In this document: piece by piece, positions 31,288-63,999 of the stretch
Layout: each line of letters begins with the position of its first letter
How positions within the stretch are numbered: position 1 is the first letter of the stretch
NCBI GenBank assembly: GCA_016183325.1
Contig: JACPEV010000003.1
Coordinates: 18,000 to 81,999 of the forward strand
Source of the DNA: Candidatus Curtissbacteria bacterium
GTDB taxonomy: Bacteria; Patescibacteriota; Microgenomatia; Curtissbacterales; GWA2-41-24
Direction of reading: 5' to 3'
DNA length: 64,000 nucleotides
Program-made: the position numbers and the translations under genes
The notes under the pieces: model-generated
Told to the model about the DNA's origin: nothing
What the model saw: the letters and a program-made list of their open reading frames with translations, nothing else
The model's database searches: none

Positions 31288-31426
31288 TTAGTTACTGGAA
31301 ATTTGATAATAGTAATGGAGAGTGGAAAATGGAAAATGACTTAATTAATGCTTTCCAATCTCCCTCAGGGCCGGGCCAGAGGCAAGTTTCGATTACCATT
31401 TTCCAGTTTCTAGTTACCAATCTCTA
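31288..31426. repeat. Left copy of the inverted repeat flanking murJ
   Basis: 34-bp core 31352-31385 is the exact reverse complement of 33170-33203. Confidence 0.85.
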
Positions 31427-31430
31427 AATT

Positions 31431-33098
31431 TCACGGGTTTGGCTGTTGGGCGTCGATAGAGGTTGGGGCGGGACTAACCAGGCGGGATGGTAAGGTGATG
31501 ACTTTTTTAACTAAATGATAAAAAATTACGACTTCTTTAACTTTGAGAAGCCAGGATAGAAAAATATAAACTGAAAGACCGATCAGGGTGGCGGTTGCTG
31601 TTAGAAAAATTAATCCGATGGTTCTGGTTGTGTCAAAGACAAGTTGATCTAGAAGTTTCATGGGGATATAGAGTGCAACTGCGGTTAAAAGTGCAATAAG
31701 GCCCATTTTGAATGCTGGAAGAAGTAGCTCTTTTTTGTTAAAAACTACTTTTTTATCCAAAAGATAGAGCAGCAAAATGGCGTTTAAAATGTTGCTTATA
31801 GAGTATGCTAGGGCAAGATAAATGATCGATAGTTTGAGAACTAAAATAAAAATCAGACTTAAGATGATGTTAATACTGACTGTAAAAACATTAACCTTTA
31901 CTGGAGTTAGACTATCTCTTATGGCATAAAATCCTCTCAAAAGAAGAAGACTGACGGCTTGGGCGGCAATACCTATCGAAAAGGCCATCAGCGTTCTGCC
32001 AGTTAAGACTGTGATCTCCCAGGGAAATTCGCGAGCACCGAAGACAAGACGTACAGCAGGAATTCTCAGAATTGCCAGGATGGCAGCAGCGGGCAAAATT
32101 AGAAAGAGAATCTGATGGAAGGAATCGATGAATATCTTTTTAAACTGTTCATATCTTTTGGCATTAAATTCAACAGAAAGTGAAGGCAGAGCTGCCTGGA
32201 CGATACTGCCAGCAAAAAGAGAGATTGGCAAAAGCTGTAAAACTTGGGCGAAGGTAAAGGTAACGATTGAACCTACGGCGACGACTGATGCAAGAGCTAT
32301 GTTTATAATGTCAGAAATTCTAAGAAGAGCAAGAGATATCGACCTTGGCCACATTAAAGCAAATACTTCACGAACATCTTTATTTTTAAAATCCAAGATA
32401 AACGTCACTCGAAACCCTAGGGAAAGAGCGAGTGGCAATTGAATAACCAAATGCAGAAGAGCGCCTAGGACCATACCAACCGCGGGAGCGTAAATGCCCA
32501 AAACAGGAGCTAAAAAAATGATTGAGATAATAATACCGACGTTATAAAAAATCGAGGCAATTGCTGGAATAATGAATCTTTGAAATGATTGGAGAATACC
32601 TGTCAAAAAAATCGAGCCGACAAAGAAAAGTTGGGCAAAAATCATGATACGCATGAGACGGGCGATTAGTGGTTTGGTAAGAGGATCTTGATCCACAAGG
32701 CCAGGAGCAACGATAGGTGCTATAAAATCGGCAGTGGCGACGATTAAAATAGCAAAAATAACAAAAACTAAAAGGGCAGTAGAAATCATGGTGGATGAAA
32801 AATTCCAAGCTTTTTCGAGCTTGTCGTGGGAGAGAAATTTGGAGAAAACTGGAATGAAAGCCAAGGCAATTGTTCCGAAGATCAAAACTTCAAATATGGC
32901 ATCGGGTACGATTGAGGCAGCGATGAAGCTATCCAGAAGATGAATATTATCACCAAAGTAAGAGGCTAAAAGACGGTAGCGGATCAGTCCTAAGATCCTG
33001 GAGATGGCGACCGAGGCAACGATAACAAAGGCGGCAGTAAGGATATTTTCTTGTTTTCTCTTGAAAAAATCAGTGCCATTTTTGAGGATGTACAGCAT
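31431..33098 (-). CDS. murJ: Lipid II flippase MurJ (MviN)
   Basis: SRILGLIR, AFIPVFS, ALPSLS, RGFYA..D..TP; many TM helices. Confidence 0.93.
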   Translation of the reverse strand: MLYILKNGTDFFKRKQENILTAAFVIVASVAISRILGLIRYRLLASYFGDNIHLLDSFIAASIVPDAIFEVLIFGTIALAFIPVFSKFLSHDKLEKAWNFSSTMISTALLVFVIFAILIVATADFIAPIVAPGLVDQDPLTKPLIARLMRIMIFAQLFFVGSIFLTGILQSFQRFIIPAIASIFYNVGIIISIIFLAPVLGIYAPAVGMVLGALLHLVIQLPLALSLGFRVTFILDFKNKDVREVFALMWPRSISLALLRISDIINIALASVVAVGSIVTFTFAQVLQLLPISLFAGSIVQAALPSLSVEFNAKRYEQFKKIFIDSFHQILFLILPAAAILAILRIPAVRLVFGAREFPWEITVLTGRTLMAFSIGIAAQAVSLLLLRGFYAIRDSLTPVKVNVFTVSINIILSLIFILVLKLSIIYLALAYSISNILNAILLLYLLDKKVVFNKKELLLPAFKMGLIALLTAVALYIPMKLLDQLVFDTTRTIGLIFLTATATLIGLSVYIFLSWLLKVKEVVIFYHLVKKVITLPSRLVSPAPTSIDAQQPNP

Positions 33099-33128
33099 TG
33101 TGGTAGAATACTTGCGAAACTCGAAACC

Positions 33129-33304
33129 TAGAAATTGGTTACTGGAAACTGGAAATTGGTAATGGAAATTTGCCTCTGGCCCGGCCCTGAGGGAGATTGG
33201 AAATTAGTTAGGAGCTATTTTCCCATTTTCTACTTTCCACTTTCCATTACTACTTTCTCTTTTTCAAGAAAAAATATGCTCTCATATTTTCCAGTAACTA
33301 TTTT
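33129..33304. repeat. Right copy of the inverted repeat flanking murJ
   Basis: Inverted match to 31288-31426. Confidence 0.85.
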
Positions 33305-36081: not shown

Positions 36082-36306
36082 ACTTGTGTAATTATACAAA
36101 AATGCCCCAAGTTTCGTCAGTTGCAGGAATTTAAAGAAGTAAACTATACAAATTTCTGACGATCGTCAAAGAACAGTATAAATTAAATTTGATACTATGA
36201 TTCGAATCATTAGAACAATTGCTGCTAAACAAATCCAGCAATTTAATAATAAAACAATAGAACAATTATTATAATCTATAAATTTGAAGAGGGAGAAGAT
36301 ATTAGT

Positions 36307-37182
36307 TTATATTTTTGTATAGTATTTTTCATTTGTTCCATAAACAGTACAGGTATGTGCACCAACAGACAAACTTAGCTTAGGGACAGGGTATGATTTG
36401 TCCTTAATGGAATAAAATTTCCAATCTTTACTTAAATCTTCTATAGCGGCACTAGAGCTCGGCTCACCCCAAACTACAAGTGTTCCCGGGACAAATTTCT
36501 GATACTCTTTATATTCGTTTCTATGCTCTTTTAAATATTTTTCTGCACATTCAATTGCTTCTTCAGGAGAATAGTCAATATTGGCTATAGATAATTCTGG
36601 ATCGTTAATCTTAAAGTGCTCGGGCAAATCCCAATAAACATTACAAGTTTGAGCCCCAACGTAAAAATTGGGACTAAAGGGAAATTTTTCGGGCTTGGTT
36701 TTATGATTCATATACATGAAGTAGCAGAATTTGTCTTCTTTGCTATATTTGCTGTTTTTTTCTAAAAGTTGTGAGCAAGAATAAGACTCTTTTCCCGATT
36801 CTTTATCATCAATAATTAGACTGCTCAAGATGGGATATACGATTTGGTTTTCAGCTACGAAATCCTTTACGCATTGCTTAGCTTGTTCAGGTGTAACCTC
36901 TTTATATTCGTCTTTTAAATAGAGATCCTTATATTCACAAGTATAACCTCCTAACACACATCCAAAATTATCACTCCCTCCTCCGCAATAAGCAGCTAAA
37001 TTACACTTATCTTTAGGACAACCATTTTCCATTGAACAGTAAGAGAAAAGTACGTTGGGAACTGGGTTAGTATAGAGGATTTGTCTAGAAATGGATCTAG
37101 AGTGGATGAAATAAAAGATTCCACCTGTTACAAGTAGTCCTATTACAACCAAGATTAAAATCGGAGCAAAACCGCGGCGCAC
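36307..37182 (-). CDS. Cys-rich surface protein with prepilin-like leader (MRRGFAPILIL)
   Basis: Probable GTG start at 37182; RRG|FA class III-like leader plus TM; variable Cys-rich body. Confidence 0.75.
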   Translation of the reverse strand: MRRGFAPILILVVIGLLVTGGIFYFIHSRSISRQILYTNPVPNVLFSYCSMENGCPKDKCNLAAYCGGGSDNFGCVLGGYTCEYKDLYLKDEYKEVTPEQAKQCVKDFVAENQIVYPILSSLIIDDKESGKESYSCSQLLEKNSKYSKEDKFCYFMYMNHKTKPEKFPFSPNFYVGAQTCNVYWDLPEHFKINDPELSIANIDYSPEEAIECAEKYLKEHRNEYKEYQKFVPGTLVVWGEPSSSAAIEDLSKDWKFYSIKDKSYPVPKLSLSVGAHTCTVYGTNEKYYTKI

Positions 37183-37249
37183 AATTTTATAATTGCACTT
37201 TTTACGGCCGTTGACAATGGAGAACATCTGTGTGTATAATTGTGTGTAT

Positions 37250-37489
37250 ATGAGAACAAATGTAATTTTACCTGATGATTTAATTGCAGAAATAGATAAG
37301 ATAGCGGGCGCCAGAAAAAGAAGTAAATTCTTAGAAGAAGCCGCACGTGATCGGATTGAGTCAGAAAAATTAATGGATGCTTTTGAAAAAGCTCGAGGTA
37401 TTTTGAAGAACGATCCCAGATTTGCCACCAGAGCTAAAGTCCGCAAGTATATTCGTGACTTCAGACGCAAAAATAGTTACAGATTCTAA
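37250..37489 (+). CDS. RHH antitoxin
   Basis: MRTNVILPDDL..RSKF; TTGACA/TATAAT promoter. Confidence 0.85.
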   Translation: MRTNVILPDDLIAEIDKIAGARKRSKFLEEAARDRIESEKLMDAFEKARGILKNDPRFATRAKVRKYIRDFRRKNSYRF

Positions 37490-37491
37490 TC

Positions 37492-37869
37492 ATGCCCGTG
37501 GTTAGATATCTTCTTGACTCCGACGTAATCATAGAATATCTAAAAGATAACAGAGAAACAGTCACGCTTATAAATAAGACTGGTGGTAAAGGGTTATCTT
37601 GCAGCGTTTTAACTATTATTGAGGTTAAACGAGGCGTGAGACCAAAACAAGAAGCTACTTCAGCAGATTTATTCAAAATAATCAAAGCTTACCCTGTGGA
37701 TAAACAGATTGCAGAACTTGCTGTTGCTTTTGCACGGGAATGGCAGGGAAAGGGCAAATTTTTGCAGCTAGTTGATGCTTGCATTGCCGCAACTTGTGTT
37801 ATCTACGATTTGACTCTGGTTACGTATAACAAGCGTGATTATCCGATGAAAGAGCTGAGGATAATTTAG
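37492..37869 (+). CDS. vapC: PIN-domain (VapC) toxin
   Basis: YLLDSDV, DACIAATC, LVTYNKRDY. Confidence 0.92.
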   Translation: MPVVRYLLDSDVIIEYLKDNRETVTLINKTGGKGLSCSVLTIIEVKRGVRPKQEATSADLFKIIKAYPVDKQIAELAVAFAREWQGKGKFLQLVDACIAATCVIYDLTLVTYNKRDYPMKELRII

Positions 37870-37953
37870 TCGAGGAATTTGTCCACCTAATCTTACCTCA
37901 AGTCTTTTCATCCGCCAGTTGGCGGAACGACTTGAAGAGCGATCTTTGGCGGA

Positions 37954-38020
37954 TCAGTCTATAAACTGAAAGGTGGAGAGGATTTGGTTGAATTAAAATC
38001 GGAGCAAAACCGCGGCGCAT
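37954..38020 (-). repeat. 67-nt 'empty' head::tail unit 1 (MRRGFAPILI / FNQILSTFQFID*)
   Basis: Leader codons joined out of frame to the conserved tail motif. Confidence 0.85.
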
Positions 38021-38138
38021 ACTTTTATCTTGGCAGTTTTGGCGCAGTTTTACAAATTCTGACATAACTACTCGCGTAGTTACTTACAAAGTAATGGATA
38101 TTGACAAATGTAATGCAATTTGTTAAATTTAATGCATT

Positions 38139-38390
38139 ATGAGCTATATTGTTTCCATCACCTCACAAGGGCAAATTAGCATCCCGGCAAAAATACGTCG
38201 AGAGCTTGGATTGGATAAAAAGAAAAAGGCATTAGTGACGGTCAAGGAAGGAAATATTGTCGTGGAACCTGTAAAGGATTTGCTGGAACTGCGAGGTTCA
38301 TTAAAAACTACTATAAAAGCGACCCGTAAACAAATTCGTGATGCGTTCGAAACGTATCTGGGGAAAGAAGCTGTTAAAGGGATAAGGTGA
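38139..38390 (+). CDS. AbrB/MazE-type antitoxin
   Basis: ITSQGQISIPAKIRRELG. Confidence 0.9.
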   Translation: MSYIVSITSQGQISIPAKIRRELGLDKKKKALVTVKEGNIVVEPVKDLLELRGSLKTTIKATRKQIRDAFETYLGKEAVKGIR

Positions 38391-38770
38391 CGAGAACTGT
38401 TATTGACGCAAATGCTTTCCTAAGACTTCTATTGGACGATATCCCAAGCCAAGCAGATCAAATTCAAAAGATTCTTCTTGAAGCGAAGAAAAATAAAAAG
38501 GAGTTGTTAGTACCGCAGATTATTATTTTTGAAATAGTGTTTGCTCTCGAGAAATATTATCATTTTCCTAAACAAAAAATTGTAGATAATATTAAGTCAA
38601 TTTTAGCAATGAGGTATTTTAAAATTCAAGACAGAGAAATCTTTAAAAGGGCAATAGATCTTTTTGATAAAAAGAATGTTTCATTAACTGATTGTTTTCT
38701 TGTGTATTTTGTACAGCACAACGATGCAAATCTCTTCAGTTTCGATAAAGATTTAAAGAAATTACAGTAA
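38387..38770 (+). CDS. vapC: PIN-domain (VapC) toxin
   Basis: VIDANAF, SLTDCF, FSFDKDL. Confidence 0.9.
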   Translation: MTRTVIDANAFLRLLLDDIPSQADQIQKILLEAKKNKKELLVPQIIIFEIVFALEKYYHFPKQKIVDNIKSILAMRYFKIQDREIFKRAIDLFDKKNVSLTDCFLVYFVQHNDANLFSFDKDLKKLQ

Positions 38771-38832
38771 AAGATAAGCTTCATTACTCTTTAAAGTAGA
38801 TTAGTCGGGGGATTGATCCTACTTTTAGCGGA

Positions 38833-38899
38833 TCAGTTAATAAACTGAAAGGTGGAGAGGATTTGGTTGAATTAAAATCGGGGCAAAACCGCGGCGCAT
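38833..38899 (-). repeat. 67-nt 'empty' head::tail unit 2 (MRRGFAPILI / FNQILSTFQFIN*)
   Basis: Same junction as unit 1, with 3 substitutions. Confidence 0.85.
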
Positions 38900-39040
38900 A
38901 CTTTTATCATGGCAGTTGGAGAGAAAAGAGTCAAAGTTTCAATGAGTCTATGAAATACCAAAACCACGCAATAGCGTGAAAGTGGTATGTGGACCGTTTT
39001 GGTTGCTAGGGTAAACTCAGTGATGAATCTTACAGCACAT

Positions 39041-39128
39041 TGTCATTGCGAGGAGTCCTTCGACTTCTCTCAGGACGAGAAAGCAATCTAATACATAAAA
39101 AATTGATTCGTTTCACTCGCGATGACAA
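39041..39128. repeat. TGTCATTGCGAG...CTCGCGATGACA palindromic element with nested CCTTCGAC...CAGGAC unit
   Basis: Terminal inverted repeats visible in the sequence. Confidence 0.7.
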
Positions 39129-39203
39129 ATGTAATTATCCAGTTTAAAGATCTAAAGGTGAAGCAGATTTGTTTCTAACTTAATGGGATTTCTCACTAAA
39201 AAG

Positions 39204-40250
39204 TTATTTAAGTCTTTGATATTTCACCCCATCCCAATCTAATAGTTCTTGATTAAAATCATAACTAGTAGAAATAGGTCCGCCAGACTCACTTTTTGCA
39301 TTCAATAAATTATTCTTACATGAATAAAAACCACTCTCTGAGAAATCGGAGTGATTCCACTCGAAAGTTGACTGTCCATAGTCTGAAAGAGTTGTTCCCT
39401 CTTGAAATTGTATACTCCAATAACCCATTTCAGCTCCATTTGGTCCAAGTCCAACCTCATGCTTATCTACCGAACGAAAAGTAGAATTACTAAAAAGAGT
39501 ACAAAAATCTGAATTATTTGGTCCGATCTGGGAATTTAAAAATTTAAAGGTGGAGAGGATTTGGTGAAAAACTCCAAGAATATCATTCTTTTTAAGATAA
39601 GTATCCCAATAATGAATGACGATCACTATCAGTGAGCCATCAAAATTGCCGGGTATATAGTATGTTTTTGTTATCTGCGATGTATGATTTGATTCATAAA
39701 TACAGAGTGGATGGGAGACTTGCACCATTGCCCTGACATTTCCTATTATTACTTCGTTCGGTTCATTCAAGTAATATATACCGGCTGGTCCTTGGCAGGC
39801 TATTGGCGTCTCGCTTAGGTTAATTTTCCAGAAAGAACTTTTGGGATTAAATAATTCTGCTTGCGTAATTTCCTTTTCTCCATATTTTTTTCTAAATTCT
39901 GTTGTTTCTACTGATATTTCTCCATAAACTCTGCTAGGTTGATCTATTTCATAATAAATTTCTGCATTTCGGGCTTCATTTTCGAAATCAGCATTAGTGT
40001 TACTAATGATTTTAAATTGCCAAGAATCAGGGTATTTCAGGGTAAATTTTCCCACTGTATTTGTATATGTCTTCCAATTGGCCCCGATTGAATCGGGGTT
40101 AGCTGTTTCGTCGGTTGAAGATGGGGACGGTGATGTTGTTGATTGAGGTTGTGATTGAGTTTTAGGTTTACTTTGCTGATATAGAAAGGCTCCGATTACA
40201 GAGATAGCAACTATGATTAGAATTAAAATCGGGGCAAAACCGCGGCGCAT
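39204..40250 (-). CDS. Surface protein with prepilin-like leader and PsbP-like WKTY...QILSTF domain plus an extra C-terminal domain
   Basis: MRRGFAPILIL, S/T/P linker, NWKTYTN..FTLKYP, FHQILSTFKF. Confidence 0.8.
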   Translation of the reverse strand: MRRGFAPILILIIVAISVIGAFLYQQSKPKTQSQPQSTTSPSPSSTDETANPDSIGANWKTYTNTVGKFTLKYPDSWQFKIISNTNADFENEARNAEIYYEIDQPSRVYGEISVETTEFRKKYGEKEITQAELFNPKSSFWKINLSETPIACQGPAGIYYLNEPNEVIIGNVRAMVQVSHPLCIYESNHTSQITKTYYIPGNFDGSLIVIVIHYWDTYLKKNDILGVFHQILSTFKFLNSQIGPNNSDFCTLFSNSTFRSVDKHEVGLGPNGAEMGYWSIQFQEGTTLSDYGQSTFEWNHSDFSESGFYSCKNNLLNAKSESGGPISTSYDFNQELLDWDGVKYQRLK

Positions 40251-40342
40251 AATTTTATCTTGGCAGTTTTCGGGAAACTTTACAAACTATACCCCAAATT
40301 CTTTTGGTATACTGAGAAACTATAAGTATTCACCTTTTTCCA

Positions 40343-40429
40343 ATGTCATCCTCGCGAAAGCGAGGATCCAGCTTCAATTAAATAGATTCCCGCATTCGCG
40401 GGAATGACAAGTGGGGGGCGGGAATGACA
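40343..40429. repeat. GTCAT-type palindromic element containing a dRS3-like ATTCCC-N8-GGGAAT
   Basis: ATTCCCGCATTCGCGGGAAT at 40386-40405; region flanked by 23-bp direct repeats 40299-40321 and 40461-40483. Confidence 0.75.
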
Positions 40430-40495
40430 AATTAACTAAAAACTTAAATTTGCCATCAATTTCTTTTGGTATACTGAGAAACTGACTTTCCCAAG

Positions 40496-44259: not shown

Positions 44260-44580
44260 TTACAGGTGAGCAGACTTGCTGTTGGTTTGGGGAACAATGC
44301 GAATTTCCAGGCGTGCCTTTAGGGCTTTGGTGATTTTTTCAAGTGTTTTAAAAGTATAAGCCGTGTAATCGGCGGACTCCAGCCGGGCGATGTTTGATTG
44401 TTTGGTACCCACGAGTTTGGCCAATTGAGCTTGAGTTAAACCTGCTTTTTTACGCAAATCGTAAACTTGGAATGCAATATCCCAAGCCCTATCTGCCTTC
44501 TCTAAACCTTCCGCAAGGTTTGGACGTTGTTTTAATAATTTTTCTGTAAATCTATCTAAATCGTCTTTTTTTCTTTTCAT
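44260..44580 (-). CDS. Xre-HTH antitoxin (HigA-like)
   Basis: LRKKAGLTQAQLA..QSNIARLES. Confidence 0.9.
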   Translation of the reverse strand: MKRKKDDLDRFTEKLLKQRPNLAEGLEKADRAWDIAFQVYDLRKKAGLTQAQLAKLVGTKQSNIARLESADYTAYTFKTLEKITKALKARLEIRIVPQTNSKSAHL

Positions 44581-44581
44581 A

Positions 44582-44935
44582 TCAGCTTTCCTTAATTTTA
44601 ATTTCTCTTAATCTTTTTCTAGCCAATTCCAGTTCGTTACTTGGTATCTTCTGTTGCTTCTTTATAAAAACATGTAAAAGAATTATTACTCGCCCTTTTT
44701 CAAAAGTGTATAAGATCCTTAAGATATTATTTCCTGATTTGATCCTTAATTCCCATAATCCAGGTTCAACATATTTTGACAATGGCTCACGATGGTAAGC
44801 CCTCTTTCTTAATTTTTCAATACCGCTTCTGGTTTTGACGACTAAGTCTATATTGGTTTTAGCCAAATCCAGTAGAAATTCTTCGACAGGACTTTTACCA
44901 TCGACGTCTTTATAAAAATAGATTCCAAAGTCCAT
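44582..44935 (-). CDS. RelE/HigB-like toxin (Gp49/DUF891)
   Basis: SPVEEFL, GLWELRI, LLHVFIKKQQK. Confidence 0.9.
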   Translation of the reverse strand: MDFGIYFYKDVDGKSPVEEFLLDLAKTNIDLVVKTRSGIEKLRKRAYHREPLSKYVEPGLWELRIKSGNNILRILYTFEKGRVIILLHVFIKKQQKIPSNELELARKRLREIKIKES

Positions 44936-44977
44936 TTTTATTATATCAATTTTGATATAAAAATCAAGGGGCAATAA

Positions 44978-45142
44978 TTACTTTTTAGATTTCTTCTCCT
45001 TTTCGCCATAATCTCGACTACTGATTAGAATGACTAGGGGTTTACCGGAGCGGGTGATGAGAATCTTTTTGCGGCCAAAGTGAACTTCGTTGAGAATATC
45101 TGCAAAATGTTGTCTGGCGAATCTTGCAGTAACTGTTTTCAT
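44978..45142 (-). CDS. Phd/YefM-family antitoxin (orphan)
   Basis: ARQHFADIL..ILITRSGKPLVILIS. Confidence 0.8.
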   Translation of the reverse strand: MKTVTARFARQHFADILNEVHFGRKKILITRSGKPLVILISSRDYGEKEKKSKK

Positions 45143-45319
45143 TAACAGCATTGTATCTTTATGAAAAAATTGTGTCAATTGTGTACATTTGATACATTTT
45201 GTACCGATTGACAACATGGGTATTAAATGTTATTTTGTTTTTATGATGCATAATTTGTGTCTTTATTTAACTGGGGAATCTTCAAAAACTCTTTCAGATT
45301 TCTTCCAGTAAGTATTTTC

Positions 45320-63576: not shown

Positions 63577-63999
63577 CTAGTCCAAAAACTGAAAGGTGGA
63601 GAGGATTTGGTCAAAAATTTTTGTATCTTCAAGTATTGCTTTAGAAGTAAACCCTATCATAAAAATTTTTTGATATTTAGGGATGTATACGTTTTGAAAA
63701 GGTACTGTTTCACCAAATCCTTCTGATGAAGTTTTTGCAGGATAAGATGTTTTAAAAGCGGAATATCCATCAACTTTTAAATTTGATTGAGTTGGGATTT
63801 CGATGTAACCATCAGGATTTCTCTCAATGAAATCCTTATACCATTCATTTGGCGGCAATTCTTTAGGATTATTCAAAACACCTGTACTAAGAGAAAAGTC
63901 CGACTGATAATCAAAAAAGATTATTGATTCTGCTACGTCTTCATTTATTAAATTTTCATCGCTTACATTGAAATTACCTGGATATTTGATTTGATAAGG
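63577..63999 (-). CDS. PsbP-like surface protein, 3' part (runs off the window edge)
   Basis: Frame open to the edge (PYQIKYPGNF...), ends FDQILSTFQFLD*. Confidence 0.75.
   Translation of the reverse strand, partial: PYQIKYPGNFNVSDENLINEDVAESIIFFDYQSDFSLSTGVLNNPKELPPNEWYKDFIERNPDGYIEIPTQSNLKVDGYSAFKTSYPAKTSSEGFGETVPFQNVYIPKYQKIFMIGFTSKAILEDTKIFDQILSTFQFLD

Follow-up and report, generated by a model that had tools for sequence, protein, structure and literature searches.

A conserved DNA word at module junctions of surface-protein and toxin-antitoxin arrays in Candidatus Curtissbacteria and its class

We analyze an array of variable surface-protein genes and toxin-antitoxin (TA) modules in a 64,000-nucleotide (nt) stretch of a Candidatus Curtissbacteria genome (GenBank assembly GCA_016183325.1, contig JACPEV010000003.1, positions 18,000 to 81,999; hereafter the window, with positions counted from its first letter), and put forward the tail, a DNA-level conserved element at module junctions, as the new element of this system. 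The tail, which encodes the residues FHQILSTFKF in one gene of the array, is a short DNA word that varies very little over the whole class, and it seems to be a one-sided exchange anchor for gene parts and neighbouring modules. We lean towards the explanation that the array is a small, lineage-specific copy of a type common in the class, that its parts are exchanged by homologous recombination at anchors, and that the two 67-nt "empty" units within it are a copied microhomology scar.

The variable surface proteins of bacteria of the candidate phyla radiation (CPR), which live on host cells, form large families, and we know of no established means by which these proteins diversify. The bacterium analyzed here is of an ultra-small, groundwater type; the names of homologues of one array product point to Microgenomates-type CPR, and its genome is the only member of its genus among the genomes compared. 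A search of the literature, apart from subscription journals and supplements, yielded no account in which the tail is treated as a DNA element. Throughout, G, L and C numbers are our handles for genomes, loci and contigs, and genes of the array are named by their start positions.

Conservation of the tail and its place at module junctions

Tail codons were compiled from 104 motifs recognized by a protein pattern in 44 genomes and 21 families; the loci came from a codon-neutral search and were hand-picked from 150 of 220 matches, and pairs among them are non-independent. Isoleucine is encoded by ATC in 75 of the 104 motifs, leucine by CTC in 76 (CTN in 102) and serine by TCC in 73 (TCN in 103), against 22%, 12% and 15% for ATC, CTC and TCC in the rest of the same genes. 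Between families, the fraction of same-codon pairs is 0.85, 0.58, 0.59 and 0.53 at the Gln, Ile, Leu and Ser positions, compared with 0.60, 0.37, 0.20 and 0.19 expected, and near expectation at Thr and Phe. The DETANWKTY segment of the same genes, used as a control, is near expectation at D, T, A, N, T and Y, which excludes recent descent of whole genes as the cause of the identity among tails. Internal tails (ATC in 36 and CTC in 34 of 45) and terminal tails (ATC in 39 and CTC in 42 of 59) are alike, and the first match per genome, over 30 loci, yields ATC in 14 and CTC in 13 of 16 true tails. The preferred silent choices all end in C and make the sense strand C-rich. A reading of the tail as a Chi site or DNA uptake sequence was rejected for lack of genome-wide over-representation, since no tail 8-mer exceeds a z-score of 1.6 in the source genome and the best 7-mer (z 3.9) ranks 60th.

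The codon-neutral tail pattern occurs in 95 of 201 genomes, chance matches included, with up to 13 same-orientation copies in a single genome or array. It was found in 5 of 150 other genomes of the phylum, a small number and all outside the class, and a viral collection yielded one match. Arrays of such genes alternating with TA modules are present across the class, with conserved anchors around unrelated variable parts and, as in integrons, same-orientation sites bounding single-gene or TA cassettes. Shared segments begin at the tail. One Phd-PIN module stands behind four different upstream sequences (L024, G005, G010 and G012), and among the first three an identity of 85-87% begins at position -3/-4 of the tail; between L024 and G005 it ends just past the Gly-Phe codons of the next head, as we call the start of a gene of this kind. 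In G045 a tail combines 51 nt from the upstream side of one copy with 145 nt from the downstream side of another. Of 45 internal tails, 15 continue into a further PsbP repeat, and a scan of those next-downstream open reading frames (ORFs) that have at most 420 amino acids (aa), 100 of 119, assigned at least 14 to clear TA families of Pfam and 6 to PsbP_2. As a separate observation, G096 (L236:80-190) holds a promoter, an ATG and 12 codons followed by an in-frame tail at the start of a longer ORF.

Anatomy of the uvrD-trxA array

The array is a 4.3-kb insert between uvrD and trxA with two 67-nt fusions of head to tail, two PIN-type TA modules and two filled genes, that is, genes with a body. 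Its order on the minus strand is a 348-aa gene (40250-39204), a fusion (38899-38833), the AbrB-PIN module, a second fusion (38020-37954), the module of a ribbon-helix-helix (RHH) antitoxin and a PIN toxin, and a 291-aa gene (37182-36307); both TA modules (38139-38770 and 37250-37869) are oriented opposite to the heads. The features are as follows.

36140..36185, no strand: palindromic element, with two further copies in the genome's second array (metG-pbp1A)
36277..36306, minus: degenerate tail, in frame just behind the stop codon of the 37182 gene
36307..37182, minus: filled gene, with a head as in 40250 and an unrelated Cys-rich body
37250..37489, plus: RHH antitoxin (Pfam, 20.4 bits, just below the cut-off of 20.5)
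37492..37869, plus: PIN toxin (Pfam), unrelated by BLASTP to the other PIN protein
37866..37953, minus: hairpin module with a nested repeat and a second tail end overlapping the PIN stop codon
37954..38020, minus: empty unit B, junction identical to that of unit A, GCT allele
38027..38055, minus: promoter-like site of unit B, resembling the 40250 promoter
38139..38390, plus: AbrB/MazE-like antitoxin (Pfam)
38387..38770, plus: PIN (VapC-like) toxin (Pfam)
38801..38832, minus: hairpin remnant and degenerate second tail end; the module is also in G014, G016 (empty) and G067 (filled)
38833..38899, minus: empty unit A, 31 nt of head joined to 36 nt of tail, GCC allele; reads as a 20-aa peptide
38906..38934, minus: promoter-like site of unit A, with a -35 region common to a head stub of G018
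39042..39126, no strand: repetitive extragenic palindromic (REP)-like repeat, with look-alikes elsewhere in family genomes
39204..39520, minus: extension module; it also follows a tail in G043 (70.7% over 324 nt) and, immediately, a head in G003
39204..40250, minus: filled gene, with MRRGF head and one N-terminal helix, Pro/Ser linker, PsbP/Mog1-fold domain with the tail motif at its end, and 110-aa extension
39540..39569, minus: internal tail copy (FHQILSTFKF), forming the final helix and strand of the PsbP domain
40058..40112, minus: middle anchor (DETAN...WKTYTN)
40257..40285, minus: promoter-like -35/17/-10 directly before the 40250 ATG, seen by eye and absent from the consensus-scan list
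40295..40321 and 40457..40483 (span 40295..40483), plus: 27-nt direct repeat on either side of a REP-like palindrome, at that end of the insert which adjoins uvrD

The insert is lineage-specific. Its GC content is 36%, against 40-42% in the flanks, and among 20 family loci, fetched from 20 of the 29 other genomes with a tpiA match, none holds the array; trxA and uvrD are adjacent in 18 and separated by one other ORF in 2. The assembly path through the array is matched by contigs of three sequencing runs, which are possibly its source, and one run of another study gave short pieces across the array without bridging the junctions; none of the runs listed is of RNA.

Pfam searches bear out both TA modules of the initial annotation; between the two PIN proteins, BLASTP finds no similarity (E 25). 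Two corrections to the annotation concern the tails of the filled genes: that of the 40250 gene is internal, at about residues 228-237 of 348, with the 110-aa extension behind it, and that of the 37182 gene is degenerate and follows the stop codon. The 40250 product matches PsbP_2 (PF18933) at E 2.8e-4, below the Pfam cut-off that its relatives exceed. Its structure model (mean predicted local distance difference test score 64.8) comprises an N-terminal helix, a linker and a PsbP/Mog1 domain for which the best Foldseek matches are CyanoP (E 7.6e-6) and PsbP, and on this predicted structure the product fits the PsbP/Mog1 fold. The 37182 body is not PsbP-like: it matched no Pfam family, its structural neighbours are weak and PepSY-like (template-modelling score at most 0.39), and the ESM Atlas gave no usable feature match. 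In contigs from other organisms, the stretches that match the window are DETANWKTY and the tail, and the DNA separating them is different.

Upstream of each of the four heads lies a -35/17/-10-like spacing, its end some 7 nt from the start codon (two from the scan and two by eye), in a region where such sites number 15 against 15.5 in shuffled sequences, i.e. without excess. The 40250 gene would have a leaderless start. The -10 part is common to the promoter stubs that the initial annotation described as repeated, and upstream of the -10 box they differ: that of 38020 is like the promoter of 40250 (89.6% over 67 nt), and that of 38899 is like a head-only stub of G018. Heads vary widely in the family and are not one common sequence; a head search in metagenomes, among which close relatives may be missing, returned one locus, a filled gene.

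Several further observations concern the array and its surroundings. At window positions 37189-37240 the RHH-PIN promoter (12/12 consensus) and that of the 37182 gene, which are on opposite strands, have overlapping -35 boxes. The palindromic element of 36140-36185 recurs at G000:C4:82392-82437 and 83665-83710 (G000 being the source genome) and on C10 and C27 of G017; it has promoter-like spacing on both strands and lies at array edges and at unrelated sites of G017. Rfam gave no match at gathering score across the array and two weak sub-threshold matches on a REP-like hairpin. A HigA/HigB-like pair (HTH_3, Gp49) and a lone Phd antitoxin occupy window positions 44260-45217, 4 kb from the array, and a 117-nt inverted repeat (82%) flanks a murJ-like gene (31316-31432 and 33123-33239). 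The trxA gene of G011 (L035:6376-8073) encodes 565 aa, with an intein-like interruption directly after the active-site WC.

Empty units and states at syntenic sites

The two empty units and their shared junction stand as initially annotated. They are identical in 89 of 94 nt including the -10 stub (BLAST E 4.6e-37 against the genome). Their codon labels had been exchanged: unit 38899 carries GCC, as does the 40250 gene, and unit 38020 carries GCT, as does the 37182 gene, so that each empty unit matches its nearer filled gene. All five differences between the units match alleles found in filled or other genes, as expected if exchange occurs at both halves. A hairpin-bearing tail allele is present in both units, in G014, G016 and G067 (another family) and partly in G027; four of its six carriers are empties, and its presence in other genomes indicates that alleles circulate beyond the source genome. 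This double-hairpin insert of roughly 30 nt splits the last tail codons (window 38832-38801 and 37953-37866; also L182, L170 and L231). Folding of either unit on both strands gave z-scores of -0.52 to +0.78 against shuffles, with no inverted-repeat or hairpin structure, and inspection by eye found no RYYYAAC/GTTRRRY pair in the units; an attC-like hairpin was accordingly discarded, and a Xer dif-like reading of the head, in which one arm alone resembles the dif site, was dropped.

A search of 401 genomes for head and tail within 36 nt, with a pattern that detects 26 of 121 head and tail combinations, returned the two units of the source genome and one chance match inside another gene of G053, with no true match in the 400 class genomes. 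A stricter pattern, which detects 6 of the 121, gave no CPR match in a collection of 185,579 species and four non-CPR matches, judged by titles. At this low sensitivity, the junction was not recovered outside the source genome. Tail-like matches in fetched DNA numbered 168, of which 140 are coding, 2 lie at an edge and 26 are orphans; by eye, 12 orphans are chance matches and 14 genuine. Five of the genuine orphans, with four junctions, join at the tail edge; in another five about 35-65 nt of upstream sequence remain, and the other four resemble genes that were frameshifted or truncated. The edge fusions are head to tail here (twice), promoter to tail in G016, promoter-linker to tail in G014 and stop codon to tail in the second array of the source genome. 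Each of the four types is readable as a 3-5-nt microhomology, and their head-side partners are scattered; they fall within about 9 nt of the tail's edge, between roughly -6 and +3 relative to the Gln codon, so that no single bond, and hence no fixed crossover, fits all of them. No excised-circle joint was seen among the listed assembled contigs, which drop rare variants.

The second array of the source genome lies between metG and pbp1A (G000:C4:81576-85330, starting at window position 63577 and running past the window end), with three head genes, an AbrB-Doc pair, a 379-nt block present twice (copies 91% identical) and a tail behind a stop codon. It also holds a 69-nt exact triplication of the Doc end and a REP-like insert inside two heads. 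Among 25 family loci surveyed at this site, 24 were readable (one lacked a readable metG start), and they range from nothing (G006, G008, G017 and G023) through head-only stubs (G018, G024, G013 and G021) to several genes with TA modules. Within one genus and at one site, G026 is filled with a TA module, G016 is empty with the same TA module, and G030 has neither. Filled, empty and alternative states, for which the initial annotation suggested a test, thus occur at syntenic sites, at junctions other than that of its 67-mer.

Proposed exchange at anchors and competing explanations

In the explanation we favour, membrane-anchored PsbP-like or other surface-protein genes with their own promoters would alternate with TA modules, and parts would be exchanged by homologous recombination, presumably RecA-dependent, at a 5′ anchor of promoter, head and linker and a 3′ anchor, the tail. 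Incoming DNA would probably be taken up from other cells by transformation; all five genomes tested encode RecA and ComEC, and the proteins or the TA modules of the array may themselves have a role. As an anchor shared across families, the tail would be expected to have fixed silent sites. In the order of events that we infer, one microhomology (TTC) deletion of a gene body would have left the 67-nt scar; an unequal crossover between the scar head and the 37182 head (88% identical over 49 nt) would then have copied the scar together with its TA module, the second unit gaining GCT; and one TA module with its promoter end would have been replaced through the tail and head anchors. This history would account for the common junction, the different promoters and the unrelated PIN proteins, the last of which rule out a tandem duplication of the whole unit and TA block without later exchange. 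Of the broader idea of domain swapping in the initial annotation, the difference of bodies between conserved anchors and the alternation with TA modules in many class genomes hold, and the paired sites do not.

Several points count against exchange at anchors. The 85-87% identity of the Phd-PIN module exceeds that of two controls (mreB 72%, pbp1A 69.5%; range 69-72%), but the G012 copy is only 70-72% alike, and G005 and G010 are 84% identical in the 5′ part of metG, so the figure for the module is no proof of recent transfer. Hypervariable bodies by themselves would already produce part of the identity edge at the tail. Control positions E and K also exceed expectation (0.63 against 0.52 and 0.80 against 0.66), and family f9 uses other codons (ATC in 0 of 10). 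The fixed core of about 12-15 nt is short for RecA and, falling off at Thr and Phe, looks more like a protein-binding site. The order of events, finally, is rebuilt from one genome without a close relative.

In a possible, though in our judgement unlikely, alternative, the Q-I-L-S-T codons at the end of the CPR PsbP-like domain would be a class-wide recombination site hidden in coding sequence, the one-sided site of a dedicated unlinked enzyme (a recombinase or nickase) that stacks and reshuffles domains and TA cassettes tail to tail, in integron fashion, with empties as rare off-target events between a tail and a secondary site. Cassettes would then run from tail through cargo, promoter and head to body, and the whole would be an integron-like capture system built from different parts. 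Such an enzyme would fit a short core fixed at silent sites over 21 families in internal and terminal copies equally, the up to 13 same-orientation copies per array, the four junctions near the tail edge, the degenerate tail behind the unrelated 37182 body and the tails behind stop codons. It fits poorly with a break at or before -3 here and at or after +1 in G016, which is not one bond, with the lack of a hairpin or inverted repeat in the unit, and with the 9 of 14 genuine orphan tails that, by eye, retain upstream body sequence. Candidate enzymes are also wanting near the arrays: no recombinase family appeared among the 100 scanned downstream neighbours, the integron integrase IntI (TIGR02249) is above cut-off in none of five genomes including the source, and the tyrosine recombinases of five tail-rich genomes lie on contigs other than the arrays'. 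In the source genome two tyrosine recombinases are on C22 and C26 and two serine recombinases on C11 and C16, with the arrays on C4. The only such neighbour seen, a 533-aa large-serine-recombinase-like ORF of G080 (L124:1129-2730), lies about 3.4 kb from a tail-bearing gene.

A tail kept for a reason other than recombination, as an RNA- or protein-binding element (e.g. a pyrimidine-rich motif resembling the anti-Shine-Dalgarno sequence, or a motif of the G-rich strand), with empties as eroded genes that keep promoter and tail, is a doubtful reading. The uniform preference for C at silent sites speaks for it, and the same sites often hold head-only stubs and frameshifted genes, so that decay is frequent; most hairpin-bearing tail carriers are, moreover, empties. 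Internal copies are nevertheless as conserved as terminal ones, against a signal of the 3′ end, no Rfam family matched at gathering score, and two different TA modules behind one junction are left without explanation. The four G runs of a two-tier G-quadruplex on the other strand, rejected as a candidate, would need a CC pair and an ACC codon that are kept in only 52 and 50 of the 104 motifs. Most improbable, in our assessment, is the model of the initial annotation, in which head and tail are paired attL/attR-like sites, variable domains are precisely excised or swapped, and each empty unit is an independent product. The same junction does occur in two units that differ in promoters, tail alleles and TA neighbours, and by eye 10-11 of 15 nt agree between the 40250 head and common tail alleles. 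The fusion was, however, seen in no second genome searched, other empties have different junctions, the similarity between head and tail is offset by 4 nt from the junction, heads vary widely, the units lack an inverted repeat, and no recombinase was found beside the arrays.

Integron, superintegron and CALIN (clusters of attC sites lacking integron-integrases) arrays have a same-orientation repeat at gene ends, interspersed TA modules that are often opposite, and stop codons overlapping the repeat. The present array resembles them in the repeat orientation, the opposite TA modules and the stop overlap, and differs in having no IntI over cut-off, attC hairpin or R boxes, in the promoters of its individual cassettes and in a break position that is not fixed. 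In Anaplasma msp2/p44 the variable centre is exchanged by homologous recombination via conserved 5′ and 3′ gene regions (PMC11946796); the likeness lies in a surface-protein gene family with conserved flanks and a variable centre, whereas here there is no single expression site or silent library (four heads in the window each have a promoter-like site, as read from sequence), the 3′ anchor is much shorter and the genes are separated by TA cargo. Homologous recombination at a conserved junction decouples modules of Rhs and leaves remnant arrays, with incoming DNA proposed (PMC2935791); Rhs swaps toxin tips and immunity genes, whereas here it is the middle domain or downstream cargo, with the junction motif at the domain end. 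In minimal mobile elements of Neisseria, conserved genes flank a variable cassette that has no mobility gene (PMC4269198), as at the metG-pbp1A and uvrD-trxA sites, although the anchors here are short motifs inside variable genes, many per array. Homology-facilitated illegitimate recombination, RecA-dependent in competent bacteria and using 3-10-nt microhomologies (PMC6382021), could make the fusions; alone it gives no account of their clustering at the 5′ edge of the tail, and it is not known from CPR bacteria. By this comparison the array appears to work like the conserved-flank exchange of msp2/p44, rhs and minimal mobile elements, with an integron-like look that did not hold up in the integron tests.

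The empty units themselves are a local curiosity. The CPR tail is a testable handle: a word of 12-15 nt, fixed at silent sites in at least 21 families and placed at module junctions, that could be used to map cassette boundaries across the class.

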